Shown here one piece after another: positions 4,709 to 42,678 of a DNA stretch of 64,000 nt; the stretch's first letter is position 1; every line of letters begins with the position of its first letter. The DNA is from Candidatus Omnitrophota bacterium. GTDB taxonomy: Bacteria; Omnitrophota; Gorgyraeia; Zapsychrales; Zapsychraceae. Below the pieces are notes generated by a model. That model was not told the DNA's origin and did no database searches. It was given only the letters and a program-made list of their open reading frames with translations. Location: contig JAHFGL010000003.1 in assembly GCA_023247445.1 (NCBI GenBank), positions 14,128-78,127 on the forward strand. The letters are read 5' to 3'. Position numbers and translations under genes: made by a program.

Positions 4709-4712
4709 TTGT

Positions 4713-6950: not shown

Positions 6951-7863
6951 ACCACAAATCAAATGGTTATTATTTCTTAATAGGGCGATTATTTTTTATC
7001 TTCTTTTATTTGTTGTCCTGGCGGTTTCTCTAAATCAAACCAGAACAAAATTAAAAGTTAATCTCTTGGCCCTTAATCGTTTAATGCCGTCTTTTGATTA
7101 TTTGGTTAGCTTTGAGGCAGGCGCGGCGCCTTTTAAGGCCAGTGAATTTGATAAATATGTCGACTACTATGAAAATTTTGTTAAATTCGTCCAGGATAGG
7201 CCAGAGGCGTATACGATGCTTGGGTTTTGTTATTATCATATGGGAAAAACAAAGAAGGCGATTTCATTTTATGAAAAGGCGATTAAGTTAGATCCTGATT
7301 ATTTTTGGCCTTATTACAATTTAGGATTAATTTATTTTAAAGAAGGGGATTTTGCGGGGGCAGTTAATTATCTTGGTAAGGCGGTTGATATCAGCCCAGA
7401 TTATTCTTTCAAACTTGTCCGCAATTCAAAACTTTATCGTCCCATTCAAGCGGTCAGTAGTGTTAATTCAGATTTTAAAGCTTTAAAAAAGATGAAGGTT
7501 TACTACACCTATTCTTATAATCTTTTGATTCTAAGTTATATTCAGATGGGAAATTTTCAGAAGGCTTTTGAGGCGGCCAATTTTGGGATTAATTCTAATT
7601 TTGGTCATCAAGATTTTCTTCATTATTATGCAGGGTTAGCCAATTTAAAAATGGGAAACCCTAAATTAGCCATTGTTTATTTTAGAGAATGTATAAACAA
7701 GAATAAGAATTATGTTGATGCTTACAAAGGGTTAGCCCAGGCGCTTATCGCGATGGGAGAAAAAGAGCGGGCGAAAGAGGTGACCAATGCGACCCCATTT
7801 CTATCCAAAGAAAATCCACAAGATATGTTTGACCCAAAGTTAATAAGGTTACAACTTTTTTAA
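6940..7863 (+). CDS. TPR-repeat protein with TM anchor; paralog of 3788-4708
   Basis: AYTMLGFCYYHMGKTKKAISFYEKAIKLDPDYFWPYYNLGLIYFKEGDFAGA. Confidence 0.6.
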   Translation: MKFKPQIKWLLFLNRAIIFYLLLFVVLAVSLNQTRTKLKVNLLALNRLMPSFDYLVSFEAGAAPFKASEFDKYVDYYENFVKFVQDRPEAYTMLGFCYYHMGKTKKAISFYEKAIKLDPDYFWPYYNLGLIYFKEGDFAGAVNYLGKAVDISPDYSFKLVRNSKLYRPIQAVSSVNSDFKALKKMKVYYTYSYNLLILSYIQMGNFQKAFEAANFGINSNFGHQDFLHYYAGLANLKMGNPKLAIVYFRECINKNKNYVDAYKGLAQALIAMGEKERAKEVTNATPFLSKENPQDMFDPKLIRLQLF

Positions 7864-7872: not shown

Positions 7873-9039
7873 ATGAATCTAAAAGAAAAAGTTTTCTCCA
7901 AATTCCCCGTATGGTGTTTTATCGTTTTTGCTGCGATGTGCCTTCTTCATTATTTTTCCCTGCGGCCGTTATGGCTTGATGAACAATTCATTTTAAATAA
8001 CATTCAAGATTATAATTATGTCCAAGTTTTTGGTCCTTTAAAGAATCTGCAGGCTTTTCCCCGGGTTTATTTGGTTGTAGTCAAAGCTTTTTCACAGGCA
8101 TTTGATTATCATTTGCTTTCACTGCGGTTTTTTTCTTTGGTTTTTATGCTGGGCGCTTTTGTAATCTGGATAAAGCTGTATCAACGCCAGTGGCAAGACA
8201 AGGTGGGGATATTTTTATCGATATTATCTTTTACCGTTAGTTATCAATTGGTCTATTATTCTGCTGAACTCAAACCTTATTCGATGGATGTTTTAGCGGT
8301 TGGATTATTTTGTTTGTTTTTTTACTATCAACAACAATTTGTTAGTAAGAGTCCAACAGCTTGGCTGTATTGTACGAGCATTCTTTTACCTTTCTTGATT
8401 TTCTTTTCCTATGCGGGTTGTTTCGTGTTTTGGATGGTCGGTTATAATTTTATAATTCTTATCCGAGATAACAAAAAGTTGATTCCCGTTTTTCTGGTCA
8501 ATGCCGCTGTGTCTTTATTGTGCCTGGCCCTTCTTTATTTTATCGATTTAAGGCATGGCATGTATATGAACGGGTTTTATCAGTATTGGAAAAATTATTT
8601 TTTAGGCATAAATTCTTTTACGGCCTTTATAACTCCGTTTGGCGAGGCCTTAAAAGAAATTGGAACATGGTGGTATGGCAATACTAAGTTATTAATCCGC
8701 ATGGCAACCCCGTTTTTGCCTTTATTGGTATTTTCTTTGGCGAAATATGGCTTTGGCGGATGGAAGAAAAATGGCTGGGGAATTTTTACGATCCCGCGGA
8801 TGTTTGGTGTTCTTTTTGTGGAATTGATCATTTTAAGCATTTGCCACAAATATCCTTTTACCGGTGATCGCATCACATTATTTCTGGCGCCATTTGTTTT
8901 TTATATGATTGTTAAAGGGATTGATAGCTTACGGAAGATTAAGATTCTTCATGCCATTTGCTTTGGGTATTATTTATTTTTTCTGGGCGTTTGTTTGGTT
9001 AGCAGCTTTCTCCATTATCTGAGTCTTTACAAACAGTAG
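7873..9039 (+). CDS. polytopic membrane protein, GT-C fold (PMT/ArnT GT39/GT83-like) glycosyltransferase candidate
   Basis: 388 aa; first-loop LRPLWLDEQF acidic motif after TM1, then many TM segments. Confidence 0.4.
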   Translation: MNLKEKVFSKFPVWCFIVFAAMCLLHYFSLRPLWLDEQFILNNIQDYNYVQVFGPLKNLQAFPRVYLVVVKAFSQAFDYHLLSLRFFSLVFMLGAFVIWIKLYQRQWQDKVGIFLSILSFTVSYQLVYYSAELKPYSMDVLAVGLFCLFFYYQQQFVSKSPTAWLYCTSILLPFLIFFSYAGCFVFWMVGYNFIILIRDNKKLIPVFLVNAAVSLLCLALLYFIDLRHGMYMNGFYQYWKNYFLGINSFTAFITPFGEALKEIGTWWYGNTKLLIRMATPFLPLLVFSLAKYGFGGWKKNGWGIFTIPRMFGVLFVELIILSICHKYPFTGDRITLFLAPFVFYMIVKGIDSLRKIKILHAICFGYYLFFLGVCLVSSFLHYLSLYKQ

Positions 9040-9046
9040 TCTAACC

Positions 9047-10528
9047 ATGTCTGCACGATTATTTTTTCGATTTATTTTAATCATTATCCTTCCTGGAGTA
9101 TTAGCTTTTATTCTAACAACGCTGATTTGTTCCTCACAAAACACATTGGCCCATAATGGTCGATGGATTTCTACTAAAACAACTTTGCAAAAACCAGTTT
9201 CAGGTGCATTTACTTTTTTGACGACGCGTCAGGCTTTAGCCAAGAACCGATTGAATCTTGGCGCCTGGCATGGATATCAAGAAGTCATTTACAAAGATCC
9301 ACTTTCTATTAAGGATATTTCTTTTGATGTCTATTATCCAATGCCGAGTTATTTGACATTTATTTTTAATAAGGATTCTTCGGGGTTTGACGGCATTCGT
9401 TTAAGTGCGCATCCTATTTTTAAGAATATTTATTTAAAGTCGGATGAAACTGGCCAATTTTTGAAGAAGATGAATCTTCCGATGGATTCCTTGGCGCTTC
9501 ATCGTTGGCATCATGTAGCAATGGTTTGTGAAGAAGGTGGTTTGTCTTTATATGTCGATCGTTTATTGTGGGGGAAGATTTATTCCACGTGTTTGTCTGA
9601 TCGATATCTTGGATTTCGGAGTGGTAAGAAAGATATTTTGGTTGATAACGTCGTAATCCACCTAAAAGATTCTGCGACTACGATTCATGAAGACTTCTCT
9701 AATCGAGGAAGATTTATCACCATTTTGGGTGTTATATGGATCGTTGGTTGTCTTATTTCGTTTATATATAAAGGAAGAGAACTTCTTGGTTTACAAAGCC
9801 TTCTGATTCTTTTGTGCAGCTTAATTTATTTTTTTGATAATCAATTTCAAGCGCTTAGATATCCGATAGCTTCATCCTTTAAGAAACAAGAAGAGGTTTA
9901 TTGGAAAATGGCCCAAAGAGATAGGGTCTGTGATCTTTTAAGGAAACAGTATAATTTTTCAGCCCAAAATGATATTGATCGCATTTTGTTTATTGGCAGT
10001 TCACAAACTTGGGGGGCGGGAGTGCTTAAGGAAGAAGATAATTTTGTTTCGCATCTTGAGAAACACTTCAATAAAAGGAAATTTGGGAATCGAGCTGTAT
10101 CTTGTATTAATGCCGGCATCTCTGGGCTAGATGCACCAGCCCTTTTTGATTTATACGAAAAAGAATGGATCAATCTTGCGCCCGAGTGGGTTGTTATCAA
10201 TCTATCTTTTAATGATCGTCTTGATCCAAAGAAATTTGCTTTAAGTTTAAAGAAATTTATTCATTTGAATTTGGTTAAAGGAATTAAGACCATATTTGTT
10301 TTAGAAGCCACTTCACTGGAAGATGAAGAGTTGACATTTCCAGCTTATGCCGCGATGAAAGAGGTGGCCCTCAACAATAATATTCCCATTATTGATATGC
10401 ATCAATTCTTAAAAGGTCACTATGATGACGGTTTTTTGTGGTGGGACACGGTGCATTTAACCACCTTTGGACACAAATTATTGGCGGACACCTTGGCTAA
10501 AGAGTTAAGTAAAATTATTAATAAATAA
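9047..10528 (+). CDS. membrane-anchored protein with a LamG/ConA-like domain and a C-terminal SGNH/GDSL hydrolase domain
   Basis: N-terminal TM; WHHVAMVCEEGGLSLYVDRLLWG (LamG-like); ILFIGSSQTWGAGV (GDSL block I) and WWDTVHLTTFGHKLLA (DxxH block V). Confidence 0.55.
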   Translation: MSARLFFRFILIIILPGVLAFILTTLICSSQNTLAHNGRWISTKTTLQKPVSGAFTFLTTRQALAKNRLNLGAWHGYQEVIYKDPLSIKDISFDVYYPMPSYLTFIFNKDSSGFDGIRLSAHPIFKNIYLKSDETGQFLKKMNLPMDSLALHRWHHVAMVCEEGGLSLYVDRLLWGKIYSTCLSDRYLGFRSGKKDILVDNVVIHLKDSATTIHEDFSNRGRFITILGVIWIVGCLISFIYKGRELLGLQSLLILLCSLIYFFDNQFQALRYPIASSFKKQEEVYWKMAQRDRVCDLLRKQYNFSAQNDIDRILFIGSSQTWGAGVLKEEDNFVSHLEKHFNKRKFGNRAVSCINAGISGLDAPALFDLYEKEWINLAPEWVVINLSFNDRLDPKKFALSLKKFIHLNLVKGIKTIFVLEATSLEDEELTFPAYAAMKEVALNNNIPIIDMHQFLKGHYDDGFLWWDTVHLTTFGHKLLADTLAKELSKIINK

Positions 10529-10634
10529 CAAAATAGTGGCCAAAATAATCTTGCTATAAATATTCGATACATATATAATAGCGCTCCAAGTGTAGAGAAA
10601 CTATACAGTTATGTGAGGAGCAGCGTTTTAAATA

Positions 10635-10786
10635 AAATTCCAATAAACAAGTACCAAATACCAAGCAATGCACAAATCCCAATGACCAAAATTTAGTTTT
10701 GTACCTTGTTAATTGGATTTTTTTTGGTATTTGTGATTTTGGATTTGTATATTGTCTGTGATTTGGTGTTTGGGATTTGGAATTTT
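10635..10786 (+). promoter_or_regulatory. long imperfect hairpin (A/C-rich arm then G/T-rich arm) immediately upstream of the trxA RBS; copy A of a three-member family
   Basis: aaattccaataaacaagtaccaaataccaa...ttggtatttgtgattttggatttg...tgggatttggaatttt; arms are complementary (ccaaataccaa/ttggtatttgg, caaatcccaa/ttgggatttg); followed by aaaagaggagg and ATG. Confidence 0.4.
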
Positions 10787-10802
10787 AAAAGAGGAGGATT
10801 GA

Positions 10803-11123
10803 ATGTCTGTTGCACAAATTACAGGGAAGAATTTTGAGAACGAAGTTGCTAAATCCAACTTGCCGGTTTTAGTTGATTTTTGGGCCGAGTGGTGTGGCCC
10901 TTGCCGGATGATTACCCCCATTGTTGATGAAATTGCTAAAGACTTAACTGGAAAGTTAAAGGTCGGGAAGGTTAACGTTGATGATGAACAAGAATTAGCC
11001 GCCCGATTTAATATTATGTCCATTCCGACGCTTCTCATTTTTAAAAAAGGCGAGGCCGTTGATCAAATTGTTGGTGCGATGTCGAAAGATCAGCTTTTAG
11101 CTAGGATAAATCCGAATTTATAA
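10803..11123 (+). CDS. trxA: thioredoxin
   Basis: 106 aa; WAEWCGPCR active site; strong RBS gaggagg. Confidence 0.9.
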   Translation: MSVAQITGKNFENEVAKSNLPVLVDFWAEWCGPCRMITPIVDEIAKDLTGKLKVGKVNVDDEQELAARFNIMSIPTLLIFKKGEAVDQIVGAMSKDQLLARINPNL

Positions 11124-11130
11124 GGGGCAA

Positions 11131-11188
11131 GTAGCAAGGGGCATGGGTCAAGGACATATTCCTTGCTACATGACCCTTGACCCTTTTA
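11131..11188 (+). terminator. rho-independent terminator after trxA
   Basis: GGGTCAAGG...CCTTGACCC 9-bp stem (with a nested alternative TAGCAAGG/CCTTGCTA) followed by TTTT. Confidence 0.5.
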
Positions 11189-11197
11189 GGAGAATTT

Positions 11198-11548
11198 ATG
11201 TTCATTCATTTCTGCAAATCCAAACTAGCTCACGCAACCATTAACGAAGCCGAACTTCATTATGAGGGAAGCATCACCATTGATGCCAATTTGCTTAAAG
11301 CCGTCGATATTATTCCTGGTGAAAAAGTCGAGGTTCTTAACATTAATAATGGAAATCGGTTCGAAACATATGCCATTGCTGGAGAGCCTGGTTCTGGTCA
11401 TATTTGCCTTAACGGTCCTGCCGCTCGCTTAGGGCTTGTGGGAGATAAGATCATCATATTAAGTTATGTTCTTTTGGATCCCAACGAAGCCAAAACGTTT
11501 AAGACAAAAGTTGTTCACTTAGATGCTCACAACAAAATTAAAAATTAG
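11198..11548 (+). CDS. panD: aspartate 1-decarboxylase
   Basis: KLHRATV-like [21 protein letters not shown], then ...[26 protein letters not shown]; ATG at 11198 follows aggag (the ORF track starts earlier at 11177). Confidence 0.8.
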
Positions 11549-12029
11549 ACTTTACGGCGACCCATGCCTTCGTAAAAAGTCTACTCTTTTAAAAGAAGTA
11601 GGTCCTTCCGAGCGTATTTTAATTGATTCCATGATTGCCACGATGCATGACTATAAGGGGATTGGTCTGGCGGCGCCGCAGGTGGGTGTTAACCAGCGCA
11701 TTATTGTTGCTGATATCGGAGAAGGCCCCATGGCCTTAATTAATCCTAAAATTATAAGAAAGTCAGGAACAGATATTTTGGAAGAAGGCTGTTTAAGTAT
11801 TCCCGGCATTACGGTCAAGATTAAGCGTGCGCAAAAAGTTTTGGTTCAATACACCGATCATAATAATAAATCTGTCGAGAAGGTTTTTGAAGATTTACTG
11901 GCGCGGGTGATTTTGCACGAAACGGATCATTTAGATGGGAAGTTGATCATTGATTATGCGACGATTGTAGCTAAACGGAAATTTAAAAACCAACTCAAAG
12001 AAATTGAAGCTAGCCAAAAGAAGTCATAA
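11523..12029 (+). CDS. def: peptide deformylase
   Basis: [18 protein letters not shown] and HETDHLDG motifs; overlaps the panD 3' end by 26 nt. Confidence 0.85.
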
Positions 12030-12949
12030 TGCCCCAATTATTAGAAGATAATCCAACCGCCGATAATAATCGTTTACCGCTGTGGTTTAATCAGCCAATT
12101 CCGAATATGGATAAAATTCGGGAAATGAAGGGGCTGTTTCGCTCTTCGGGACTGCATACGGTTTGCGAAAGCGCGCATTGCCCTAATATTGGTAAATGCT
12201 GGGGAGAAGGAGTTGCCACATTTATGATTTTAGGCGAGATCTGCACGCGTGCGTGTCGCTTTTGTGCGGTTAAAGCGGGCAAGGCGATGGATGTTGATTT
12301 AGAAGAACCCAAGAATGTGGCGCTCGCGGTCCAAAAATTAAAATTACGTTATGTGGTCATTACATCTGTTGCTCGTGATGATTTAGATGATGAAGGGGCG
12401 GATCATTTTGCGCAAACTATATCTGAAATTAGGCGGATAATGCCGCAAACAAAGATTGAGGTTTTGATTCCAGACTTTTCCAACAAAATGGATAGTCTTA
12501 AGAAACTTGTTGCCGCCAAACCCGAAGTTGTCAGCCATAATATCGAAACGGTTCGTCGGCTGTCGCCAAAAATTAGACCACAGGCCCAGTATGATCGATC
12601 GCTGGAGGTTCTGCGTAATTTTAAGAAATTGGATGTAAGTATTTTTACCAAATCAAGTTTTATGGTTGGACTAGGAGAAACAGACGAAGAAATCGACGTC
12701 GTCATGCAAGATTTATTAAAAGCAGAGTGTGATATTTTAACGATCGGTCAATATTTAGCGCCAACTAAATTAAAACGGCATCTGAAAGTTTCACGATTTG
12801 CGACACCCAAAGAATTTGACAATTATAAACAGCGGGGCCTGGCGATGGGATTTAAACATGTGATGAGTGGCCCTCTCGTGCGAAGTTCTTTTATCGCTGA
12901 AGAAGGATATAAAGAATGTTTTGGAAAGGGCGTTGCTAAAAATGTCTGA
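12029..12949 (+). CDS. lipA: lipoyl synthase
   Basis: CPNIGKCWG auxiliary-cluster motif and CTRACRFCAV radical-SAM CxxxCxxC motif. Confidence 0.9.
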   Translation: MPQLLEDNPTADNNRLPLWFNQPIPNMDKIREMKGLFRSSGLHTVCESAHCPNIGKCWGEGVATFMILGEICTRACRFCAVKAGKAMDVDLEEPKNVALAVQKLKLRYVVITSVARDDLDDEGADHFAQTISEIRRIMPQTKIEVLIPDFSNKMDSLKKLVAAKPEVVSHNIETVRRLSPKIRPQAQYDRSLEVLRNFKKLDVSIFTKSSFMVGLGETDEEIDVVMQDLLKAECDILTIGQYLAPTKLKRHLKVSRFATPKEFDNYKQRGLAMGFKHVMSGPLVRSSFIAEEGYKECFGKGVAKNV

Positions 12950-17968: not shown

Positions 17969-18445
17969 ATGACAGATTCTGTATATTTGACAAGGGCGGG
18001 TTATAAAAAGCTGATGAAAGAGCTGGAACAGCAAAAATCAGAGAGACTGAAGATTGCCAAGGCTATCGAAGAGGCACGGTTACAAGGTGATATCTCTGAG
18101 AATGCTGAATATGATGCGGCTAAAGATGCTCAGGCGCATAATGCTGTCAGAATAGCTGAGCTAGAAACTAAATTGACCAAGGTTAGAATTATTGAAGATG
18201 AGAATATTCCCTCCGATAAGATTTTTATTGGGGCGATCGTTAAGTTAAAAGATCAGGACACAGGTGAGCAACTTACCTATATGCTCGTTTCTCCGGAAGA
18301 GGCAGATTACGAAGAAAATAAACTCTCCATTTATTCACCCATCGGTAAGGCTTTGATGGGGCACGCCCAAGGTGAGATTCTTTCCATTAAAGTTCCCGCC
18401 GGAATTCTTAAGTACAAAGTTGTAAAAATCGAACGCCCTAAGTAG
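17969..18445 (+). CDS. greA: transcription elongation factor GreA
   Basis: MTDSVYLTRAGYKKLMKELE N-terminal coiled coil, C-terminal FKBP-like domain; ATG at 17969 (the track uses an upstream TTG at 17951). Confidence 0.85.
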   Translation: MTDSVYLTRAGYKKLMKELEQQKSERLKIAKAIEEARLQGDISENAEYDAAKDAQAHNAVRIAELETKLTKVRIIEDENIPSDKIFIGAIVKLKDQDTGEQLTYMLVSPEEADYEENKLSIYSPIGKALMGHAQGEILSIKVPAGILKYKVVKIERPK

Positions 18446-18484
18446 GGAATAGGGTTTAGGGATCAGGGGTTAACTATTTAATCG

Positions 18485-19990
18485 TTATCCGCTGGTTTTA
18501 TCCATCCACAAAGCATAAATTACCCAGAAAACGACTGTCGGTAAGGCCGCGTATAAAATGCGGTGTAAGGTGACTTGTAGCCACCAATCGATGGGGAAGT
18601 ACGTATTGATGAAGTAGTAAAAAGTAATGACCGCCGTATAAGCGATAAAAAATAGAGGGAAAATAATTATACGGGGATTTAATAAATGCTTATTGGTGCC
18701 GATTAGAATGGCGATCAAAAGAAGCAAAATAACATTGTACCCGTGCGGTAAGCTCATCCATAAACCATTGAGCCCAGGTAAAATAATTGGCCCAAAACTA
18801 AAAAGAATGATACATAGCTTTAATATTATCCAGCGTTGATCGCTTAAGAGTAACCCCGCCACTAAAACCAACCATAAGCCATTCCAATTTGGACTGACAA
18901 TTTCTGCTAAATAAAACGATAAAATATATTCTAATCTAAATAAGCTGACAGGTTTTATTGTTGAAACAAGACCATTAATCATGGTGATGTTTTTTGGTGC
19001 ATAAAATCCATAGAAAATAATGGATGGAATAGAAGCGATGGCGCCGGCAATAAAAAATGTCTTTAAGATTTTCCATTTATCCTTTGCTGAATCTTTCCAG
19101 AAAATATAAGGCACGGCTAAGCATAGAATGATGAGAGCGGCAATCAAGGCTTCACCTTTTGTAAAGCTTAAGAAAGCTAAGAAAGTTCCGGCGAGTAAAG
19201 CGTAAATGGGATGGTGGGTTTCTTTTAATTCGATTAGGCAAAAGAAGCTGGCCAAAAGATAAAAGCTCACAACGATGTCGCAGTATTGACTCAAAGATAA
19301 TTTAATATAAAAAGGCATGCTTAAAATGACGAGCGCGGTAAGAAAAGAAAATATACTTTTTGTTTTGTGCCTGAGGGCGAAAGAAAGTAGTCCGATGGTT
19401 AAAAAGGTAAATAAGAAAGAAGTGAAAATGGATGCTTCGACATCAGGTTGGTTGATGAATGTCCAACCCCAGAGAATGGTGCAGGGCAGAAATAAGGGAT
19501 AGTGTGGGCTTGATCGCCATAAAATAGAAGTAAACATTCGCTTCCAATCATCACCGCTTAAAAATAGAAATTTTGCTTTGAGATTCCATACCGACCACGC
19601 ATCCCATCCTCCGTAGGCATAAAAATGGGCATGGATCCATAATGGTAAAGAGATGATAATTAAAAATAGAAATGGGTAGAGAGCTTTTTGGCTAAAAGTG
19701 TTTGGTGGGAAAATTGGTGATTTATCTTTGTTCCACTTTAGAATTTGGATAATGGTTAGCAAACAAAGAACGATTAAATTTCCACTAATGATAAACAGGC
19801 GATTAAATTGATTAAATAAAATAAAACTAGAGAAAACAATGCTTGAACTTATACCAATGCCTAATCCAGCGGCCAAGAAAAGATGAATTGAAGGTGGTAT
19901 CTTGTGTTCTTTAGACGAAAAAAGGTTGATCGCTAAATATCCAATCGTAAAGGAGATAAAAAATGGTAAGTAGACTAATAAGAGATTCAT
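18485..19990 (-). CDS. polytopic membrane protein; paralog of the N-terminal half of the 998-aa protein
   Basis: 501 aa; shared blocks LAAGLGIGISSSIVF/LALGLGLGFSSFITF and YGGWDAWSVWNLKAKFLF/YGEWDAWAMWNLKTKFLL. Confidence 0.5.
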   Translation of the reverse strand: MNLLLVYLPFFISFTIGYLAINLFSSKEHKIPPSIHLFLAAGLGIGISSSIVFSSFILFNQFNRLFIISGNLIVLCLLTIIQILKWNKDKSPIFPPNTFSQKALYPFLFLIIISLPLWIHAHFYAYGGWDAWSVWNLKAKFLFLSGDDWKRMFTSILWRSSPHYPLFLPCTILWGWTFINQPDVEASIFTSFLFTFLTIGLLSFALRHKTKSIFSFLTALVILSMPFYIKLSLSQYCDIVVSFYLLASFFCLIELKETHHPIYALLAGTFLAFLSFTKGEALIAALIILCLAVPYIFWKDSAKDKWKILKTFFIAGAIASIPSIIFYGFYAPKNITMINGLVSTIKPVSLFRLEYILSFYLAEIVSPNWNGLWLVLVAGLLLSDQRWIILKLCIILFSFGPIILPGLNGLWMSLPHGYNVILLLLIAILIGTNKHLLNPRIIIFPLFFIAYTAVITFYYFINTYFPIDWWLQVTLHRILYAALPTVVFWVIYALWMDKTSG

Positions 19991-20418
19991 GGCTTTCTTC
20001 GGATTAATATCATTCCAAATTTATTTACAAACAAAGGTTCAGCATTTAATTCTTTAATTTTTTCAAGGGCCTGAAGATCGTTTTTACAGACTAAAAGAAT
20101 GAATTCATGATTTGTATTGTTGTAGTCAAGCACCGTGGGCGCCAAAATAAATTGAGCCTGAGAAAATAGTTTGTTTGATTCATCATCATTGGTGTCGCTA
20201 TAATAGCCCAAGAGGTTAATCTTTTTGGTAATGTTTTCTAATCCTAGGAATTTGCCCCCGATGACTTGATGCTTTAGATATTTTTTAAATGTTTTAATGC
20301 GGTTGACCTCGGGGATAAAGACAATAACATTAAAAATAATAATGGCCAGGAAGGAGACGATAAGAATTCTCTGGGGCAAAGATTTTGGCCAATTTATTTT
20401 AAATGAGGGCAACGTCAT
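19987..20418 (-). CDS. small single-TM protein; paralog of 23408-23869
   Basis: 143 aa; shares SQAQFILAPTVLDY / LQAQYFLAPTILEL with the 153-aa protein; 4-nt overlap with the downstream gene. Confidence 0.45.
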   Translation of the reverse strand: MTLPSFKINWPKSLPQRILIVSFLAIIIFNVIVFIPEVNRIKTFKKYLKHQVIGGKFLGLENITKKINLLGYYSDTNDDESNKLFSQAQFILAPTVLDYNNTNHEFILLVCKNDLQALEKIKELNAEPLFVNKFGMILIRRKP

Positions 20419-23411
20419 GGATTTATTTGCGGATTTGGTTTGGTGGCTAGTAGGGTGTTCGCCACATCAAAATTCTTTAAAACTTTTAGATTATATTTTG
20501 CCAAAACAAAGAAATCTTGGAGCCAGTCTTTACTTTCAGGTAAATGGCTCTTCGGGGTTGTTAGATAATAATAATCAAATATTCCATTGGGTCCTTGGCG
20601 GTTAACCTGTTTTAGCCATGTCAGATGATATTTTTCGCGGTAGAAATTAATACTTGGTTCAAAAAGCCAGTTGATCCCAAGGCTCACAGAATTTTCATTT
20701 AAGTTCTTCGTTTTGGGCGCATCTTGCATAATAAATTTTACGGCGTCTTTGGTTGACGCATCGAACTGCCATTCATAAAAGTATTTGATGTTAGCACACC
20801 CAAGAAAGTGGACGAAATAAATTGTTGTTAAAGCATAGAAAAAAGTTTGGGCGGATAATCTAAGGGCTTTCTGAGGAATCGATTGGGCTACTCCTATCAA
20901 GATGACCACAACCATCATAAAAAGAAAAACAAAATAAAGGGCTGTTCTTCCCATAACAAACTTTGTCCCTAAAATTTTCCATTGAAGGAAGATTAAGGAT
21001 GCGCAAAGAAATAGGATTGTTAGGATTCCCATTAAGAATTTATCAGTTGATGAGAACGGTTTTTTCATTATCAGTAGTTGCGCTAGATGGGCTACGCTAA
21101 GAGTTAAAATAGATATGATCAGAAATTTAATGATTAAAATAATATTTAGTCCATCGATAGCTTTTGCGTAAAGGGTGCTATCAATTAAACTTGTTACAGT
21201 GTCCGTCCAGAATCCTTTGTCCCCGCCATAATAAAGTTCATGATAAGTTAATAATTTTTGTAGCGGGACAATGTAAAGAGCCCCCACCACAATTGAACTT
21301 AAGATAATAGAAGGAAAGAGGTTTTTTAGTAGACGTTTAAATATTTCTTTTTCGCGAAATGATTGCAAAAGTTCAAAGCCAAATAGAAACATGATGATAG
21401 CTAGATGAATATGGAGAAAGGCGAGGTTAGATAAAGTAGCCAGAACTAATAACCAAGAGCAAAGGATTAAATTTTTTCTGTAAAGAAGAATGTCATTTGT
21501 CATCAGGATTTTAAAAAAATAATATAAACCCAAAGCCAGAAATCCTAGGCCCAACGCATACCCTCGGGCGCAGGAAAATAAATCTAGCATATAAGGATTG
21601 CACGTCAGCAAAAGAAGTCCTGCGATAAGACTTGGTCCACGTAGAACGATCGAACAAATTTTATAAGCAGCAAACAGAAAAAGCGCATGACCGATCAAAG
21701 CCGGAATTCTTATCGCAAATTCTGACAATCCAAAACAATTGACTGAAATTTTAATAAGTAAACTATTGAGCAGATGGTTGTTTGATGGGTGCGGCTGACT
21801 AAAGGTTAATATTTGAAGAAATGAGGCCGAGGCATGACGCAGATATGTTAACGCTTCATCATGGGTGATCGATATGTTGTAAGCACGGATGAGCGTATAA
21901 ATAAATAATCCCGCCATGATGAGAAAGCAGATCCAGTGAGTAATTCTATTTCTGTCATCCTGAGCGTAGCGAAGGATCTCAGGATTCTTACGTGGCTTGA
22001 GATTTTTTGCCTCGCTCTTGGCAGGCTCAGAATGTTGGGGTGATAACTTTGTTGTTTGGTCTGACCAATAACAAAAAAATGATAGAAAGAGAATGGAGGG
22101 CAAAAGCTGCAGGTAAAGGCGCTCCAGTGACATTGACAGCCACCAATGGATATCGATATTGGTGTTGACCAGATAGATAAAGATTAGGATCGCGATGTAA
22201 GTAATGATGGAGAAGCTAATAATTTTATTTTCTTTATAAAATAATTTTGGAAATTTTAGGATGCCCAACAAAATAACCAATAACCAAATAAAGCTCCATC
22301 GTTTATCAATGATCTCGTTGAATACTGTTTTTTGAATGAGCAGAAATTTTTGGGCCTGTGTAATGTTTAGCTGAACTGCTTTTAAGCTGGGAAGAATATC
22401 TTCGTTGGGCGGCGCCAGGAATACTTTGAAGATGATCGTTGGCAATGCGGCAACGATTAATCCTATCAACATAAAGCGAATCAGGCTCCAACTTGTTTTC
22501 TTGCTTATCGTTTTATCAAATATTAGATAAAGTGTCGTGACGCTTGCCAAGATCCCCGTCATTACCATGCCTTCATTCTTGATGAAGGACAAAAATCCCA
22601 GGAATAGTCCATAAAGAATAGCCACGCGGTGATCTTTTAAATGCATCATGATGATCATTGTGACAAATGCGGCCAAAAGATAATACGCTAAGACAATATC
22701 GGCATATTGGGCCGTCGACCAAAAAATGAAATAAGGATGAGATAAAAGTAATAAGGAGGCAAAAATTCCAGCGGGCTTTAAATTAAGATGCTTTAAGGCC
22801 GCATAGACTAAAAGACAGGCGCTGACCGTAAATAAAAAAGACGTTATAAGCGGAATTGGAAAAAGATTGTTGGCGAAAAAGGAATAAATCCAAACATTAA
22901 CAAATGGTAAGAAAAGTGGGTAGTCGGGATGAGTATGCCAGTTTAGGCCTGATAAAATATCTTGCCAGGGCGTTTGGCTAAAGAGGAGAAACTTGGTTTT
23001 TAAATTCCACATCGCCCAGGCGTCCCATTCGCCGTAGGGATGTTTTTGGATAAGGAATAAGATTATTCCAGACAAGATAAGCCAGCAACAAGCAATTAGA
23101 ATATCTAATGGTTTAAGATTTTTTATCGATTTTTTAAATTGGTCAACGAGTGATGAGGAGCGCAACGACGAGAAATTAAGATAGATTAATAGAATTAAGA
23201 AAAGAAGATTGGCCGTAACAATGGCCAACGCATTAAATTGACGCAGGAATAAGAAAGAAAAGAATGTAATAAATGAGGAGAATCCTAATCCAAGGCCAAG
23301 GGCGAGTAAGAGATGAAGGCTTAATGAAATTGGTTTTGTATTTTTTAATAAAAAAGAAATGGCGAGGAATCCAAGGCAAAAAGAAATAAGGTAGGGGAAA
23401 AAATGGATCAT
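20415..23411 (-). CDS. large polytopic membrane protein: N-terminal module like 18485-19990, an RPE/MITE-encoded linker, and a C-terminal GT-C (PMT/ArnT-like) glycosyltransferase module
   Basis: 998 aa; C-half has ISITHDEALTYLRHA and NNHLLNSLL first-loop motifs typical of GT39/GT83; linker ...HSEPAKSEAKNLKPRKNPEILRYAQDD is encoded by the repeat at 21954-22035. Confidence 0.55.
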   Translation of the reverse strand: MIHFFPYLISFCLGFLAISFLLKNTKPISLSLHLLLALGLGLGFSSFITFFSFLFLRQFNALAIVTANLLFLILLIYLNFSSLRSSSLVDQFKKSIKNLKPLDILIACCWLILSGIILFLIQKHPYGEWDAWAMWNLKTKFLLFSQTPWQDILSGLNWHTHPDYPLFLPFVNVWIYSFFANNLFPIPLITSFLFTVSACLLVYAALKHLNLKPAGIFASLLLLSHPYFIFWSTAQYADIVLAYYLLAAFVTMIIMMHLKDHRVAILYGLFLGFLSFIKNEGMVMTGILASVTTLYLIFDKTISKKTSWSLIRFMLIGLIVAALPTIIFKVFLAPPNEDILPSLKAVQLNITQAQKFLLIQKTVFNEIIDKRWSFIWLLVILLGILKFPKLFYKENKIISFSIITYIAILIFIYLVNTNIDIHWWLSMSLERLYLQLLPSILFLSFFCYWSDQTTKLSPQHSEPAKSEAKNLKPRKNPEILRYAQDDRNRITHWICFLIMAGLFIYTLIRAYNISITHDEALTYLRHASASFLQILTFSQPHPSNNHLLNSLLIKISVNCFGLSEFAIRIPALIGHALFLFAAYKICSIVLRGPSLIAGLLLLTCNPYMLDLFSCARGYALGLGFLALGLYYFFKILMTNDILLYRKNLILCSWLLVLATLSNLAFLHIHLAIIMFLFGFELLQSFREKEIFKRLLKNLFPSIILSSIVVGALYIVPLQKLLTYHELYYGGDKGFWTDTVTSLIDSTLYAKAIDGLNIILIIKFLIISILTLSVAHLAQLLIMKKPFSSTDKFLMGILTILFLCASLIFLQWKILGTKFVMGRTALYFVFLFMMVVVILIGVAQSIPQKALRLSAQTFFYALTTIYFVHFLGCANIKYFYEWQFDASTKDAVKFIMQDAPKTKNLNENSVSLGINWLFEPSINFYREKYHLTWLKQVNRQGPNGIFDYYYLTTPKSHLPESKDWLQDFFVLAKYNLKVLKNFDVANTLLATKPNPQINP
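21954..22035 (-). mobile_element. MITE-like element, copy 2 (short, degenerate), translated in-frame within the 998-aa ORF
   Basis: gtcatcctgagcgtagcgaaggatctcagg...gcaggctcagaatg; minus-strand translation RYAQDD from the TIR. Confidence 0.55.
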
Positions 23412-23869
23412 CGTTTTCTTTGCGTCAAGGCCTGTCCGTAGTCATTGTGGGCCACTGGACGGGCATTAATTTTTCTTAACACCATTGGAAGAATTGTATA
23501 ATCAGGAAAGTCGACAATGTTAAATACTGGATTGGGTCGATTGAGTTCTAAGATCGTTGGCGCCAAGAAATACTGTGCTTGTAAGAAAATCCCATCGTTT
23601 TTTTCTCGCGACATATCTTTGCTGGTTAAATAGCCAACACGTTCTATCCCAGCGAGTTTAGGTTTGAAGGTGAGAAATTGATACCCTGGCTCGTAATAAG
23701 TGCTATAACCACTGGCAACATGGGCCATGACACTAATATAAAGAGAAATAATATTATGGATAAGAAGTCCGCAGGTTAATGCCAAAATGAGGGTGTTTAC
23801 GTGAAACCATTTTTTGGGGAACATAGGCGAAGCTATTTTATTACTGGACCTTTGAGAAAACAAGCTCAA
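23408..23869 (-). CDS. small single-TM protein; paralog of 19987-20418
   Basis: 153 aa; overlaps the start of the 998-aa gene by 4 nt. Confidence 0.45.
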   Translation of the reverse strand: MSLFSQRSSNKIASPMFPKKWFHVNTLILALTCGLLIHNIISLYISVMAHVASGYSTYYEPGYQFLTFKPKLAGIERVGYLTSKDMSREKNDGIFLQAQYFLAPTILELNRPNPVFNIVDFPDYTILPMVLRKINARPVAHNDYGQALTQRKR

Positions 23870-23997
23870 AATTACCCGCCGCGCATCTAATTTGAAGAGA
23901 AGTAAAACTAAAAATTAGGGCTTTCTTAAATTTATCTTAGTCAGTATAATATAGCCCGTTTAGAGACATTATTTTGTTTAGACAACAGCATTAAAAT

Positions 23998-24122
23998 AAA
24001 TTCCAATAAACAAGTACCAAATACCAAACAATCCACAAATACCAATGACCAAAAGTCATATTTAGCTTTGTAGTTTGTTAATTGGAATTTGTTTGGTATT
24101 TGAGATTTGGGATTTTGAATTT
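23998..24122 (+). promoter_or_regulatory. long imperfect hairpin element, copy B, immediately upstream of the RBS of the Gfo/Idh/MocA gene
   Basis: aaattccaataaacaagtaccaaataccaaacaatccacaaataccaa ... ttggaatttgtttggtatttgagatttgggattttgaattt, then aaaaagaggag. Confidence 0.4.
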
Positions 24123-24139
24123 AAAAAGAGGAGAAGAAG

Positions 24140-25156
24140 TTGGTTCATGTCGGGATTATCGGTTGTGGTCATTGGGGGCCCAACCACGTTCGTATTTTTT
24201 CACAGCTCTTAAATTCTAAGGCCTTGATGTGCGCTGATTTTGATGAAGGCCGGCTTAAAACGATAAAAAGTTTATTTCCTCAGATTGAGACAACCACAGA
24301 TTATAAGAAGATTTTAGCGAATAAAGAGATCCATGCGGTCTGCATCGCGACTCCAACCAATACACATTATTCGATAGCCAAAGAAGCCTTGGAACATGAC
24401 AAACATGTCTTGTGTGAAAAGCCTCTTGCGTTAACTTCCTCCGAATGTGAAGAGCTCAAAAATCTGGCCCGTGACAAAAATCGGCTGCTTATGGTTGGAC
24501 ATGTTTTTCTTTTTAATAAAGGAATTTTGTGGCTTAAGGAATATATTCAGTCAGGGGAGTTGGGGCATATTCATTATGCGTATGCTACAAGAACTAATCT
24601 GGGGCCGTTTCGTTATGATGTTAATGCGCTTTGGGATTTGGCGCCGCATGATATTTCAATCTTTAATTTTTTGTTTAATAGTGCGCCGGTAAATGTCTCG
24701 GCCCGCGGACAAAAATGTTTGGGGAATTCGCAGGAAGATTTGGCCTTTGCCACGTTAGAGTATCCGGGGAATTGTATGGCGAACGTCCATGTCAGCTGGC
24801 TTGATCCTAAAAAGGTTCGACAGATTACAATCGTTGGTGATAAGAAAATGGTGGTTTGGGATGATTTGGATAATCTCGGGCCCATTCAGCTTTATGATAA
24901 ACATGTCGAGAAAACGTCAACCTTCTATGCCACGTATGGTGAATTTCAGTTATTGTCTAAAGAAGGAAATATTACGATTCCCAAAATAGGATTTAATGAG
25001 CCCCTTAAAGCGCAGGCTGAATATTTTATTAATTGTATTGAGCAAAATAAAAATCCTGATGTCTGTGACGCGCAAAAAGGATTGGACGTCACAAAAACTT
25101 TGTGTGCGATTCAGCAATCTATGGATCGTAAAGGTGAATGCGTGGTGGTTAAGTGA
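24140..25156 (+). CDS. Gfo/Idh/MocA family NAD-dependent oxidoreductase (WbpB-like UDP-sugar 3-dehydrogenase candidate)
   Basis: VGIIGCGHWGPNHVR Rossmann motif and EKPLALTSSECEEL block; TTG start after aggag. Confidence 0.75.
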   Translation: MVHVGIIGCGHWGPNHVRIFSQLLNSKALMCADFDEGRLKTIKSLFPQIETTTDYKKILANKEIHAVCIATPTNTHYSIAKEALEHDKHVLCEKPLALTSSECEELKNLARDKNRLLMVGHVFLFNKGILWLKEYIQSGELGHIHYAYATRTNLGPFRYDVNALWDLAPHDISIFNFLFNSAPVNVSARGQKCLGNSQEDLAFATLEYPGNCMANVHVSWLDPKKVRQITIVGDKKMVVWDDLDNLGPIQLYDKHVEKTSTFYATYGEFQLLSKEGNITIPKIGFNEPLKAQAEYFINCIEQNKNPDVCDAQKGLDVTKTLCAIQQSMDRKGECVVVK

Positions 25157-25710
25157 GTTATTTTAAACATGAAAAAGCGATGGTCCATCCTGACGCCAAA
25201 ATTGGGGAAGGAACGCGTTGTTGGGCCAACACCAATGTTCAAGCAGGCGCTGTCATTGGTCAAGGATGTAATATCTGCGATGGCAGCTTTGTTGAAAAGG
25301 GGGCGGTCGTTGGCCATCATGTGACGATCAAACACCATGTCTCTATTTTTGATGGGGTGACTATTGAAGATGATGTTTTTATTGGATCCAATATTGCTTT
25401 TATCAATGATCGTTATCCGCGCAGCAATCGTAAAGATGCATGGACGCTTGAGAAGACGTTGGTTAAAAAGGGAGCAACCATTGGAACAAATGCCGTTATC
25501 TTATGTGGCTTAACGATTGGTCAATATGCGCTTGTGGCCGCAGGAGCGGTTGTTGTTAAGAATGTTTTAGATCACGAGGTTGTGGCTGGAAATCCTGCAC
25601 GAGCGAAAGGTTATGCCTGCCACTGCGGACGTCCGCTTGATGCCAAATATAAATGTGCGAAATGTAAACGGCAATATCGTAAGAAAAAATTTGGATTGGA
25701 AGAAAAATAA
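25153..25710 (+). CDS. hexapeptide-repeat (left-handed beta-helix) acetyltransferase, WbpD/PglD-like, with a C-terminal Cys-rich tail
   Basis: repeated [LIV]G.....G hexads (IGSNIAFINDRY, IGTNAVILCGLTIGQYALVAAGAVV); tail CHCGRPLDAKYKCAKCKRQY; 4-nt overlap with the upstream gene. Confidence 0.7.
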   Translation: MSYFKHEKAMVHPDAKIGEGTRCWANTNVQAGAVIGQGCNICDGSFVEKGAVVGHHVTIKHHVSIFDGVTIEDDVFIGSNIAFINDRYPRSNRKDAWTLEKTLVKKGATIGTNAVILCGLTIGQYALVAAGAVVVKNVLDHEVVAGNPARAKGYACHCGRPLDAKYKCAKCKRQYRKKKFGLEEK

Positions 25711-25717
25711 ATTTATT

Positions 25718-25890
25718 GTCATTCTTCGTTCCGCAAAGCGGAACGAAGAATCTCAGGACACTTAAAACTTATGGGATCCTTCGCATCAACTTTCCTTTAA
25801 TATTTTAGAGGAAGTTGGTACGTACTGACTTCATCTAAATATAAATTATGGAAAAGTCAGTACGCTACGCTCCATTAGACGAGAGCGTCG
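25718..25890 (-). mobile_element. MITE-like element, copy 3 (opposite orientation to copy 1)
   Basis: gtcattcttcgttccgcaaagcggaacgaagaatctcagg...gggatccttcgc...ggtacgtactgacttcatctaaatataaattatggaaaagtcagtacgctacgctc. Confidence 0.7.
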
Positions 25891-25903
25891 AATAAAATAT
25901 AAA

Positions 25904-26635
25904 ATGTCGAAAATTCTGGTCTGTCCGGTTGCCTTTAATGAACATGTGAAGTTAAAGAATGCGATTGAACGCTTTTTGAAATCTGCTGCTTATGGCAAAG
26001 TCGATTATTTAATCGTTGATGACGGTTCAACTGACGGCACAACCGAAATGATTGTAAGTTACGCCTCTTCGGGAGTTAAGACGATTAAGCATGGGCAGCG
26101 AAGCGGCGTTGGCGTTGCGATTCGCACGGCAATCAACCATGCTAAAGTTCGTGGTTATGAAATTTTAGTGATCATGGCGGGCAATGATAAAGATAATCCC
26201 GAAGAGATTCCACGGTTGATTGATCCGATTGTTAAAGAAGGTTATGATTTTGTGCAAGGTTCACGTTATAAGGGCGCCAATGGCATCGGCGGTGATATGC
26301 CGTTTTATCGAAAGGTAGCAACGAAGCTTCATCCACTTCTTATGTCGATTATTACGGGCCAGAAGATAACAGACTCGACTAATGGTTTTCGAGCTTTTCG
26401 ACTTTCGATTTTTGATAATAAAGATATTAATATTGATCAACCGTGGCTGGACAAATATGAACTTGAGCCGTATTTGCTTTTTAAAGCAATTAAGTTGGGA
26501 TATAAATTTCAAGAAGCGGCTGTTACAAAGATTTATCCATCTAAGAAGCTTGGTTACACCAAGATGCAACCGTTTATCGGCTGGTGGAGCATTTTAAGAC
26601 CAGTAATTTTTTTAGGTTTAGGAATCAAAAAATAA
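25904..26635 (+). CDS. GT2 family glycosyltransferase, polyprenyl-phosphate sugar synthase-like (DPM1/CsbB/ArnC-like)
   Basis: DYLIVDDGSTDGT nucleotide-sugar-binding motif; 243 aa with a C-terminal hydrophobic tail. Confidence 0.75.
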   Translation: MSKILVCPVAFNEHVKLKNAIERFLKSAAYGKVDYLIVDDGSTDGTTEMIVSYASSGVKTIKHGQRSGVGVAIRTAINHAKVRGYEILVIMAGNDKDNPEEIPRLIDPIVKEGYDFVQGSRYKGANGIGGDMPFYRKVATKLHPLLMSIITGQKITDSTNGFRAFRLSIFDNKDINIDQPWLDKYELEPYLLFKAIKLGYKFQEAAVTKIYPSKKLGYTKMQPFIGWWSILRPVIFLGLGIKK

Positions 26636-27678: not shown

Positions 27679-28258
27679 AGTATCGGCGGAAACGCATCTC
27701 ATCAATTTATTTGCTGAAGCGGGCCTTTTAAAAAAGGTCAAGCGCAGCGGTTGGTGGGTGGTTGGTATCCGCAATCCTGAAAGTGTGGCTGATCATTCTT
27801 TTCGCTGCGCCATTATCGGGTATCACATTGCCCAATTAGAAAAGGTTGACCCTTATAAAGTTTTGGTGATGACTTTATTTAATGACATCCATGAAGCGCG
27901 GATTAATGATTTGCATAAAATGGGTCATTATTACATTGATTTTAAAGATGCGGAAAAGAAAGTTTTCAAAGATCAGGTAAAATATTTGGGAAGTAAGGTT
28001 AAGCTCGAGATGGAGGATTGCCGCCGAGGATATGATGAGCAGAAGACTAAAGAAAGCATCGTCGCCCGCGATGCGGATATTTTAGAGTGTTTGCTGCAGG
28101 CAAAAGAATATTATGAGGAAGGCTATACGAAGGCCAAGAAATTTTTCCAAAAAGCCCCGGGTTATTTGAAAACAAAAACCGCAAAGCGTCTTTGGCAACA
28201 GATTAAACGTTGGGATAGCTCAAAGTGGTGGGAAGATGTGGTTAAATTTGAAAGATAG
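27638..28258 (+). CDS. HD-domain phosphohydrolase (YfbR-like 5'-deoxynucleotidase family)
   Basis: RSGWWVVGIRNPESVADHSFRCAIIGYHIA HD motif region. Confidence 0.6.
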   Translation: MKSHDKKSSEKKSKVSAETHLINLFAEAGLLKKVKRSGWWVVGIRNPESVADHSFRCAIIGYHIAQLEKVDPYKVLVMTLFNDIHEARINDLHKMGHYYIDFKDAEKKVFKDQVKYLGSKVKLEMEDCRRGYDEQKTKESIVARDADILECLLQAKEYYEEGYTKAKKFFQKAPGYLKTKTAKRLWQQIKRWDSSKWWEDVVKFER

Positions 28259-29120
28259 AGAAGTTAAATTCCAAATTACAAATCCAAAACCACAAACAAA
28301 TTCTAAATTCCAAACTCCAAATCATAAACGTTTTGGGCTTGGTGTTTGTTTATTGTCTGTGATTTGGAATTTGTGGTTTGTGCTTTTTCTTTCAGGTTGT
28401 GGAACTTTCGGAAATTATAATGCCGCCACGGGCCATCGAGAATTCATCGCCATCCCGACCAATCAAGAAGTTTCCATGGGGCAGGGAATTCATCAAGATA
28501 TTCTTAAGAAATATAGACTTTGTACAGATCAATCCAAGGTTCAACGAGTCGAGCGAATTGGTCTGCGGGTTGCCCAAATCTCGGACCGTCAGGATTATCA
28601 ATACCATTTTTATGTTTTAGAGAGTGATGATCTTAATGCTTTTACTACGCCGGGTGGAAGTGTTTATCTTTATACAGGGTTACTAGATAAGTTAACGACC
28701 GATGATCAAGTGGCGGCTGTTATCGCCCATGAGATCGGTCATTGCGCGGCTCGTCACACGATTAAAAAATATCAAGCGGCGCTTGGTTATCAATTGGTCG
28801 GCAACATTCTTTTAAGCCAAATTCAAGGATCCCAAGCTAAACAAGTTACTTCCTTGGGATCAAATTTAGCGATGAATCTTGTTTTTTCTGCTTATGGCCG
28901 TGGCGATGAATATGAAGCTGATCGTTTGGGTATTAAATATTTGTATTTAGCTGGATATGATTTGGAAGGGATGGTTGAAACGTTGGGGGTATTAAAGCAG
29001 GCCTCCAAAGGCTCTAAACCACCGCTTATTTTAAGCAGTCATCCCTACGTGGAAGATCGTATTGAAGAAGTGAAAAAAGAAATTGTCAAAGTCCGACAAC
29101 AATTTAAAGATGATTCGTAA
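28236..29120 (+). CDS. M48 family zinc metallopeptidase (BepA/LoiP-like) with lipoprotein-type signal; true start uncertain
   Basis: AHEIGHCAARH (HExxH), signal/lipobox LFLSGCGT; the first ~40 codons of the tracked ORF translate the hairpin repeat, so the real start is probably an in-frame TTG/GTG near 28340-28350. Confidence 0.7.
   Translation: MWLNLKDREVKFQITNPKPQTNSKFQTPNHKRFGLGVCLLSVIWNLWFVLFLSGCGTFGNYNAATGHREFIAIPTNQEVSMGQGIHQDILKKYRLCTDQSKVQRVERIGLRVAQISDRQDYQYHFYVLESDDLNAFTTPGGSVYLYTGLLDKLTTDDQVAAVIAHEIGHCAARHTIKKYQAALGYQLVGNILLSQIQGSQAKQVTSLGSNLAMNLVFSAYGRGDEYEADRLGIKYLYLAGYDLEGMVETLGVLKQASKGSKPPLILSSHPYVEDRIEEVKKEIVKVRQQFKDDS
28266..28382 (+). promoter_or_regulatory. hairpin element, copy C, overlapping the 5' end of the M48 peptidase ORF
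   Basis: aaattccaaattacaaatccaaaaccacaaacaaattc...ttggtgtttgtttattgtctgtgatttggaatttgtggtttgtg; shares tattgtctgtgatttgg exactly with copy A. Confidence 0.35.
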
Positions 29121-39762: not shown

Positions 39763-39900
39763 AGGAGCAAAGCGTACTGACTTTTCCATAATTTATATTT
39801 AGATGAAGTCAGTACGTACCAACTTCCTCTAAAATATTAAAGGACAGTTGGTGCGACTGAAGGATCTCTTAAGAGATCCTTCGCTTACGCTCAGGATGAC
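39752..39900 (+). mobile_element. MITE-like element, copy 4 (full length, same orientation as copy 1)
   Basis: cgtcatcctgaaggagcaaagcgtactgacttttccataatttatatttagatgaagtcagtacgtacc...gaaggatctcttaagagatccttcgcttacgctcaggatgacg. Confidence 0.75.
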
Positions 39901-42612: not shown

Positions 42613-42678
42613 GTCATCCTGAGGAACGCAGTGACGAAGGATCTCTTAAGAGATCCTTCGCTGGCGCTCAGGATTACG
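42613..42678 (+). mobile_element. MITE-like element, copy 5 (short form: TIR + Y palindrome + TIR)
   Basis: gtcatcctgaggaacgcagtgacgaaggatctcttaagagatccttcgctggcgctcaggattacg. Confidence 0.65.

Follow-up and report, generated by a model that had tools for sequence, protein, structure and literature searches.

A duplicated gene cassette proposed to encode a two-subunit GT-C glycosyltransferase in Omnitrophota, with one copy fused to a second GT-C enzyme at a palindromic repeat

We analyzed a 64,000-nucleotide (nt) stretch of a Candidatus Omnitrophota genome (GenBank assembly GCA_023247445.1, contig JAHFGL010000003.1, positions 14,128 to 78,127; hereafter, the window), focusing on a series of four open reading frames (ORFs) at positions 18485-23869 of its minus strand. 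These ORFs form two cassettes, each consisting of a gene for a small protein with one transmembrane (TM) helix and a gene for a large membrane protein. On balance, we favor the interpretation that the cassette encodes a two-subunit, lipid-sugar-dependent glycosyltransferase (GT) of the GT-C class acting at the cell envelope, and that it was duplicated, with one copy becoming fused to a partner GT-C enzyme. Enzymes of this class assemble and decorate cell envelopes; those of bacteria are usually regarded as consisting of a single chain.

Two paired cassettes in one operon

The operon comprises the following features, in which A and B denote the small proteins, 1 and 2 the paralogous types of the shared large module (N-module), and the C-module an additional C-terminal unit; lengths are in amino acids (aa).

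23408-23869, minus strand: small protein A, 153 aa from a TTG start
20415-23411, minus strand: whole 998-aa ORF, divided into the next three features
22035-23411, minus strand: N-module 1 (residues 1-459), predicted GT-C fold, paralogue type 1
21954-22035, minus strand: linker (H460-D486), in-frame copy of a palindromic repeat
20415-21953, minus strand: C-module (residues 487-998), apparently complete GT39/PMT_2-like GT-C enzyme
19987-20418, minus strand: small protein B, 143 aa, ancestral type, paralogous to small protein A
18485-19990, minus strand: N-module 2, 501 aa, predicted stand-alone GT-C enzyme, paralogue type 2, ancestral type

Public gene calls begin small protein A at an ATG at 23824, giving 138 aa, and this start is more likely than the TTG. 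Stop and start codons overlap as ATGA at all three junctions; a preliminary description of the operon had pointed out the overlap within each pair, and the junction between the cassettes, which it did not name, overlaps likewise. The same overlap occurs at many related loci. With the partner gene lying directly upstream of the putative catalytic gene and overlapping it, coupled and stoichiometric synthesis is suggested. A promoter and terminator scan of 18300-24200 returned fewer sites than expected by chance. The operon is among the few minus-strand units of the window; guanine–cytosine (GC) skew is positive over almost the whole plus strand (1-64000), which carries nearly all long ORFs.

The duplication itself, proposed in the preliminary description, is evident from both pairs of proteins. 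BLASTP aligned residues 4-454 of the 998-aa protein with residues 7-500 of the 501-aa protein at 32% identity (E=2e-55), so that ~455 aa are common to both, slightly less than the ~470 aa given before. The conserved motifs YGxWDAWxxWNLKxKFL, HPxYPLFLP, SQYxDIV and WWL...R are polar or aromatic; the similarity is therefore more than hydrophobic low complexity in TM stretches, to which it might have been confined. Small proteins A and B share 30% identity over 91 aa (E=3e-11). This match falls entirely within the non-membrane domain that follows the TM helix and includes QAQ(Y/F)(F/I)LAPT, in agreement with the SQAQ/LAPT core recognized earlier.

The shared large module as a GT-C enzyme

Only the first large protein carries the additional GT-C module, as had been noted. 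The accompanying view of the shared region as simply a large membrane protein has to be revised: structural modeling indicates that this region is itself a GT-C fold glycosyltransferase, and the 998-aa protein would therefore be a tandem of two complete GT-C enzymes. The alternative of a non-enzymatic membrane protein that acquired the C-module was rejected on the fold of the N-module and the PMT_2 matches of its family.

N-module 1 (residues 1-457) was the large module chosen for AlphaFold2 (AF2) modeling, and its model reached a predicted local distance difference test score (pLDDT) of 88.7 and a predicted template modeling score (pTM) of 0.92. In a Foldseek comparison with the PDB, the top 13 matches were all GT-C enzymes, at weak E-values (0.04 and above). 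The best was ArnT (5f15; probability 1.00, TM-score 0.47 over 375 columns), and further matches included STT3, AftB, AftA, EmbA/B, Pmt1/2 and ALG9. At the family level, 31 of 44 N-module members matched Pfam PMT_2 at E<=0.01 (best 2.9e-10), a match absent from the 501-aa copy. A database search yielded 117 N-module homologues of 259-504 aa, nearly all 425-505 aa long. All those with an organism name were Omnitrophota, and none of those listed was a fusion.

Hydropathy analysis and the AF2 model agree on ~13 TM helices, the last of which ends the N-module family without a soluble domain. Residues G127, W129, D130, A131 and W132, in the loop after TM4, and K278, E280 and R431 are invariant in the 44 sequences. 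From the order of the helices and the positive-inside rule, the N-terminus is predicted to lie outside and the C-terminus inside, and the loop with D130 (G-W-D-A-W) is placed on the outer side, after TM4 rather than TM1.

An undescribed family of small partners

Small protein A has one TM helix, as anticipated for these partners, with a conserved Asn, followed by a ~95-aa alpha/beta domain containing GY(L)T(D/S)K ... FLQAQYFLAPT. Scans of Pfam and NCBIfam assigned the small proteins to no family; matches to TarQ (14.9 bits against a cut-off of 350) and Methyltransf_8 (E=0.1) were discarded as noise. A word-indexed search recovered 23 relatives, and an exhaustive profile search of 1.84 billion representatives recovered 337 cluster representatives at E<=1e-3, the best 150 of which are all 91-193 aa long. 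The AF2 model (pLDDT 87.9) consists of one long helix (residues 19-53) that leads into a compact b-a-b-b-a-b-b domain. Its weak Rossmann-like and periplasmic-binding-protein-like Foldseek matches, none below E=0.2, were not interpretable. The intramembrane Asn is kept in 122 of 138 family representatives, and conservation in this set extends to G47, F50, G64-Y-x-T-D, F80, Q-A-Q-Y-x-L-A-P and L133. No account of the family turned up in the literature searches; as far as the searched libraries and literature show, both the family and its near-strict pairing with the N-modules have not been described.

Pairing, synteny and age of the duplication

To follow the cassette across genomes, we used 13 non-redundant loci (L001-L012 and L014; 14 with L017), including loci picked through the most distant large proteins (33-35% identity). 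A small-family gene directly precedes 16 of the 17 N-module genes in the 13 loci, or 17 of 18 when the weakly matching gene of L017 is counted; the exception is the first N-module of L001, at a contig end, upstream of which no small-family ORF was detected. The small protein had been suggested as a conserved partner to be sought in other genomes, and this search found it. Its motif occurs in seven GTDB species genomes, five titled Omnitrophota and two ‘uncultured Planctomycetales’.

These counts bear on the proposal that the small protein is not a subunit at all: it would either serve the adjacent transferase as its acceptor substrate or be an envelope protein that is co-transcribed but otherwise unrelated. 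PMT-type GT-C enzymes glycosylate Ser and Thr, and the Thr of the LAPT motif is strongly conserved in the small family. That Thr, however, lies within a confidently predicted folded domain rather than a disordered Ser/Thr-rich stretch, the TM Asn points to an intramembrane contact, and neither the near-strict pairing with its usual 4-nt overlaps nor the maintenance of A/1 and B/2 as separate clades is expected of a mere substrate or bystander. We regard this proposal as very unlikely. Co-occurrence, paralogue-specific pairing and the conserved Asn suggest that the small and large proteins may form a physical complex.

The locus setting is fully shared by L002-L012 and L014, and L001 represents a contig end. 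One flank carries genes for an HD hydrolase, SpoU, a GT2 enzyme, a hexapeptide acetyltransferase and a Gfo/Idh/MocA protein, divergent to the small and GT-C genes; the other carries convergent greA, ybaB, yggT and mlaDFE. Genomes with a single cassette have type B/2. L002 and L004 contain A/1 followed by B/2, and L001 a type-1 N-module followed by B/2. In L005, a YfhO-like gene and a TPR gene (9919-12539) lie between A/1 and B/2, the position occupied by the C-module in the window. Type B/2 is the ancestral single copy, located between the Gfo/acetyltransferase/GT2 sugar genes and greA.

In neighbor-joining trees, A, B, 1 and 2 formed separate clades, with A always accompanying 1 and B always accompanying 2. 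Orthologues of the window’s A/1 and B/2 in other Omnitrophota are 38-46% identical, compared to 30-32% between the paralogues, and the duplication is therefore old. It follows that the two cassettes are no before-and-after pair for the evolution of the modules, as had been proposed, and we rejected the idea that cassette 2 preserves the ancestral state of cassette 1. The ‘before’ state of cassette 1 is more properly represented, by sequence comparison, by the unfused orthologues in L002, L004 and L005.

The C-module and its relatives

By homology, the C-module corresponds to a complete GT39-like enzyme from a separate GT-C family. Of its 93 recovered homologues, the nearest share 45-46% identity with it; most have ~500 aa and stand alone, some are named GT39, and none of those listed is a fusion. 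PMT_2 was matched by 18 of 40 family members, and D31/E32 (HDEA), after the first TM helix, is invariant in these 40 sequences. The C-module ends in a soluble domain of its own; in the family, this C-terminal stretch comprises ~120 aa without a predicted TM segment. Family members begin 15-45 residues ahead of the first TM helix. In the window, the only in-frame ATG is M499, inside that helix, with none earlier, so the C-module is probably not made on its own. The two halves of the 998-aa protein are remotely related (hhalign E=0.005).

Relatives of the C-module show further modularity. The closest on a long contig is a 692-aa protein extended by a further domain at its C-terminus; its gene cluster (L016, 3194-10836, GCA_034431315.1) also encodes a PMT_2/PMT protein of 898 aa and another protein of 913 aa. 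PA14 domains occur in P0033, P0034 and P0039, and transposase-like N-terminal domains in one relative (P0029); such additions suggest that the family often acquires extra modules.

Among 80 metagenomic loci of the C-module family, 79 had no N-module or small-family neighbor. An unfused trio was found in a distant Omnitrophota genome, GCA_026387175.1 (L017/L018; L017 4144-7575, adjoining rpsO/pnp), where separate overlapping genes encode, in this order, a 141-aa small-like protein, a 491-aa N-module relative and a 524-aa C-module relative. The 491-aa and 524-aa genes overlap by 41 nt. The 141-aa protein has the same architecture as the small partners and a weak but specific match to their profile (14.7 bits). 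In L032, the N-module and C-module families are adjacent in reversed order.

Comparison of the three families raises the possibility of a split GT-C enzyme, in which the small protein corresponds to the last TM helix and periplasmic domain that canonical ArnT/GT39-type enzymes, the window’s C-module among them, have at their C-terminus; this part would have become detached and would now be provided in trans from an upstream gene. The ~120-aa C-terminal domain of the C-module family is missing from the N-module family; the small protein has the matching layout, a TM helix and then a domain; and the N-module, with its N-terminus predicted to lie outside, could continue from a small protein that ends in the periplasm. 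Two weak and colinear matches between profiles, EPGYQF to FEPSxNFY and a terminal hairpin (E=0.022), point the same way. Both, obtained by hhalign comparison of the small family with the C-module family and with its terminal domain, were nevertheless non-significant (probabilities 0.2% and 2%, respectively), the Foldseek search with the small-protein model raised neither ArnT nor any other GT-C periplasmic domain, and the orientation of the small protein is unsettled, with the N-flank more positive in 75 of 138 family members and the reverse in 41. We consider this split unlikely; it is a sharper version of the two-subunit interpretation and does not contradict it.

The palindromic linker and the fusion junction

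The linker of 27 codons (nt 21954-22035, residues H460-D486) encodes HSEPAKSEAKNLKPRKNPEILRYAQDD and, as previously suspected, derives from a multi-copy repeat. This palindromic element reads GTCATCCTGAG...GAAGGATCTC, a loop, and then GAGATCCTTCGC...CTCAGGATGAC; in the in-ORF copy, the right arm is perfect and the left arm degenerate. Searches of the window with the end motif and the core motif gave 11 matches each, against 0.2 expected. The other copies are the following.

1447-1585: complete intergenic copy
39753-39900: complete intergenic copy
42613-42677: complete intergenic copy
45686-45833: complete intergenic copy
49602-49680: complete intergenic copy
~25700-25880: partial copy

The in-ORF copy has no obvious target-site duplication, no transposase partner was identified, none having been searched for, and ‘miniature inverted-repeat transposable element’ (MITE) is a loose label here. 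Several copies of the GTCATCCTGAG element contain a nested third palindrome, TTTAGATGAAGTCAGTACGTACCAACTTCATCTAAA (1488-1523, 25803-25854, 39798-39833 and 45757-45808), giving composite repeats of ~140 nt. In-frame MITE insertions translated within proteins have precedents, notably the Rickettsia palindromic elements (PMC10969869).

Orthologues of N-module 1 in L002, L004 and L005 stop 8-10 residues past the YW motif, at the very position that forms the start of the repeat in the window. As this element is multi-copy and a Logan contig breaks inside it, the long ORF might have been created by a chimeric join or an indel error during assembly. An 8.9-kb MEGAHIT contig of assembly ERZ27280176 (L100), however, is 100% identical over 8881 bp and spans the junction, a contig of ERZ27296333 has the 998-aa gene called too, and synteny on either side agrees with related genomes. 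Chimeric assembly was rejected on these grounds, and we consider an artefact extremely improbable.

Given a genuine fusion, the recent insertion of a repeat that destroyed a stop and a start codon could be a functionless accident, with one half of the protein inactive or decaying. The absence of other fusions among the listed 117 N-module and 93 C-module homologues and the restriction of this one to a single population fit such an accident, and an open frame through the repeat is not improbable, with two of the three frames open. Both halves are, however, full length, without stops or frameshifts, and keep their family-invariant residues, and the stop codon of the C-module still overlaps the start of the next gene by ATGA. 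The same two families are adjacent and overlapping in GCA_026387175.1, suggesting a functional link. Furthermore, the C-terminus of the N-module and the N-terminus of the C-module are both predicted to be cytoplasmic, and the fusion would therefore be compatible with normal folding of both halves. An accident seems quite unlikely in view of these features. As far as the searched libraries and literature show, a repeat-made tandem of two complete GT-C enzymes has not been described.

Neighboring sugar genes and other features of the window

Divergent from the operon and syntenically conserved are three plus-strand genes.

24140-25156, plus strand: Gfo/Idh/MocA oxidoreductase
25153-25710, plus strand: hexapeptide sugar acetyltransferase
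25904-26635, plus strand: GT2 polyprenyl-phosphate glycosyltransferase-like gene, resembling dolichyl phosphate (Dol-P)/undecaprenyl phosphate (Und-P) hexose transferases

From their predicted functions, the genes at 24140-26635 are the probable source of a lipid-linked sugar donor.

Another duplicated cassette lies on the plus strand at 1614-7863. Its two YfhO-like proteins (724 and 745 aa) are 52% identical, and each has a TM-anchored TPR protein as its partner; the TPR proteins, with 306 and 307 aa, are 30% identical. This arrangement follows the same pairing logic as the small/GT-C cassette. At 7873-10528 (plus strand), a 388-aa polytopic protein with an LWLDEQ motif and a GT-C-like look precedes a 493-aa membrane-anchored SGNH/GDSL hydrolase; the 388-aa protein drew no Pfam match, and BLAST did not relate it to the N- or C-modules.

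Besides the GTCATCCTGAG element, the window contains another, different family of repeats, at 10628-10746, 23991-24123 (copies ~88% identical) and 28272-28313. The first two copies each have an internal inverted repeat and lie just upstream of a thioredoxin-like gene (10803) and the Gfo/Idh/MocA gene (24140). A partial inverted copy sits inside the 5' end of an M48 peptidase ORF (28236-29120), the listed N-terminus of which, QITNPKPQTNSKFQTPNHK, is probably translated repeat and no real protein. A tandem repeat of 3 x 30 nt is present at 769-858. An Rfam scan of the whole window detected only a tRNA, at 58475-58545.

Discussion

In the model that we favor, the catalytic subunit would be polytopic, with ~13 TM helices and the invariant Asp of WDAW in the loop after TM4. 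Its partner would be a bitopic protein of an undescribed family, with one TM helix bearing the conserved Asn and a ~95-aa alpha/beta domain. Made in a coupled fashion, the partner may bind through the Asn-bearing helix and supply a soluble domain, which is missing from the N-module family. Once the Gfo-type oxidoreductase and the acetyltransferase had modified a nucleotide sugar, the divergent GT2 enzyme would use it to load a carrier; the donor would probably be a polyprenyl-phosphate sugar, which the polytopic subunit would move from its carrier to an acceptor in the envelope. As one B/2 copy, the cassette would belong to the conserved core of an Omnitrophota lineage, joined in some genomes, that of the window included, by an additional old paralogous A/1 copy upstream, with strict A-1 and B-2 pairing. 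In the window, a complete GT39-like GT-C gene would have come to lie after N-module 1, and a repeat at the junction would have removed the stop and start codons, giving one 998-aa chain that may act as a covalent pair of two GT-C enzymes.

Several observations weigh against this interpretation. N-module 1 reached 25.9 bits with PMT_2, just below the gathering cut-off of 26.1, the window’s own C-module had no Pfam match at E<=1, and sequence and profile searches against PDB chains returned nothing for any module. For the small-protein model, Foldseek gave no significant neighbor in the PDB (best E=0.2), so the role of its domain is a guess; the side of the membrane on which it lies is ambiguous because the flank charges favor N-in/C-out weakly. 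The aminotransferase required by the Gfo/acetyltransferase pathway was not found adjoining the locus. Finally, with two of three frames open through the repeat and the fusion known from one population only, the open frame could reflect recent chance rather than selection.

The individual ingredients, GT-C enzymes, GT2/GT-C donor schemes and in-frame MITEs, are already known. The closest parallels are the schemes that combine ArnT/GT39 (PMT_2) enzymes with a GT2 polyprenyl-phosphate sugar synthase (ArnC/ArnT, GtrB/Gtr and CsbB/YfhO). Like these, the N-modules have the polytopic GT-C fold and an acidic residue in what is inferred to be the first outward-facing loop of the core. Likewise, the conserved neighbors of the cassettes include sugar-modifying genes and a gene resembling GT2 Und-P/Dol-P sugar transferases. 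The N-modules differ from ArnT/GT39 enzymes in that three additional N-terminal TM helices precede the catalytic loop and that one invariant Asp (WDAW) takes the place of a DE or DxD pair. They also lack a C-terminal soluble domain and have a nearly constant bitopic partner, and the locus contains no GtrA-type flippase gene.

Eukaryotic GT-C enzymes that need single-pass accessory proteins include PIG-M with PIG-X (Gpi14/Pbn1) and oligosaccharyltransferase with its small subunits. The cassette resembles them in joining a polytopic GT-C protein with a small single-TM protein that has a soluble domain; no sequence or fold similarity was detected, however, and the partnership proposed here comes from gene order and co-conservation alone. 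The 998-aa chain could be a covalent version of an arrangement such as the Pmt1-Pmt2 heterodimer, in which two different GT-C proteins come together, although Pmt1 and Pmt2, close paralogues that carry MIR domains, are made as separate chains, whereas the halves of the 998-aa protein are remotely related and joined by a repeat-derived linker. As in the Rickettsia palindromic elements and other MITEs (PMC10969869), a short multi-copy palindrome is translated within a protein without breaking the frame; in the window, it occupies the boundary between two genes, where it connects two complete enzymes instead of forming a loop inside one protein.

A bolder reading, which we find possible but doubtful, is that the small proteins form a new class of obligate bitopic subunits of bacterial GT-C enzymes, as counterparts of PIG-X and the oligosaccharyltransferase small subunits and maybe as an ArnT-type periplasmic domain supplied in trans, and that the 998-aa chain is a functional covalent heterodimer acting successively on the same envelope glycan.

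The fusion provides a clean natural case in which a mobile palindromic repeat turns two adjacent genes into a tandem enzyme, with the unfused states preserved in relatives, and would tie two GT-C families together functionally in a ‘Rosetta stone’ manner. If the two-subunit interpretation holds, the GT-C class would gain a subunit type in the form of a near-constant single-helix partner, conserved in a phylum whose members are uncultured and partly host-dependent nanobacteria, and the pairing would also mark a core envelope-modification pathway of Omnitrophota.

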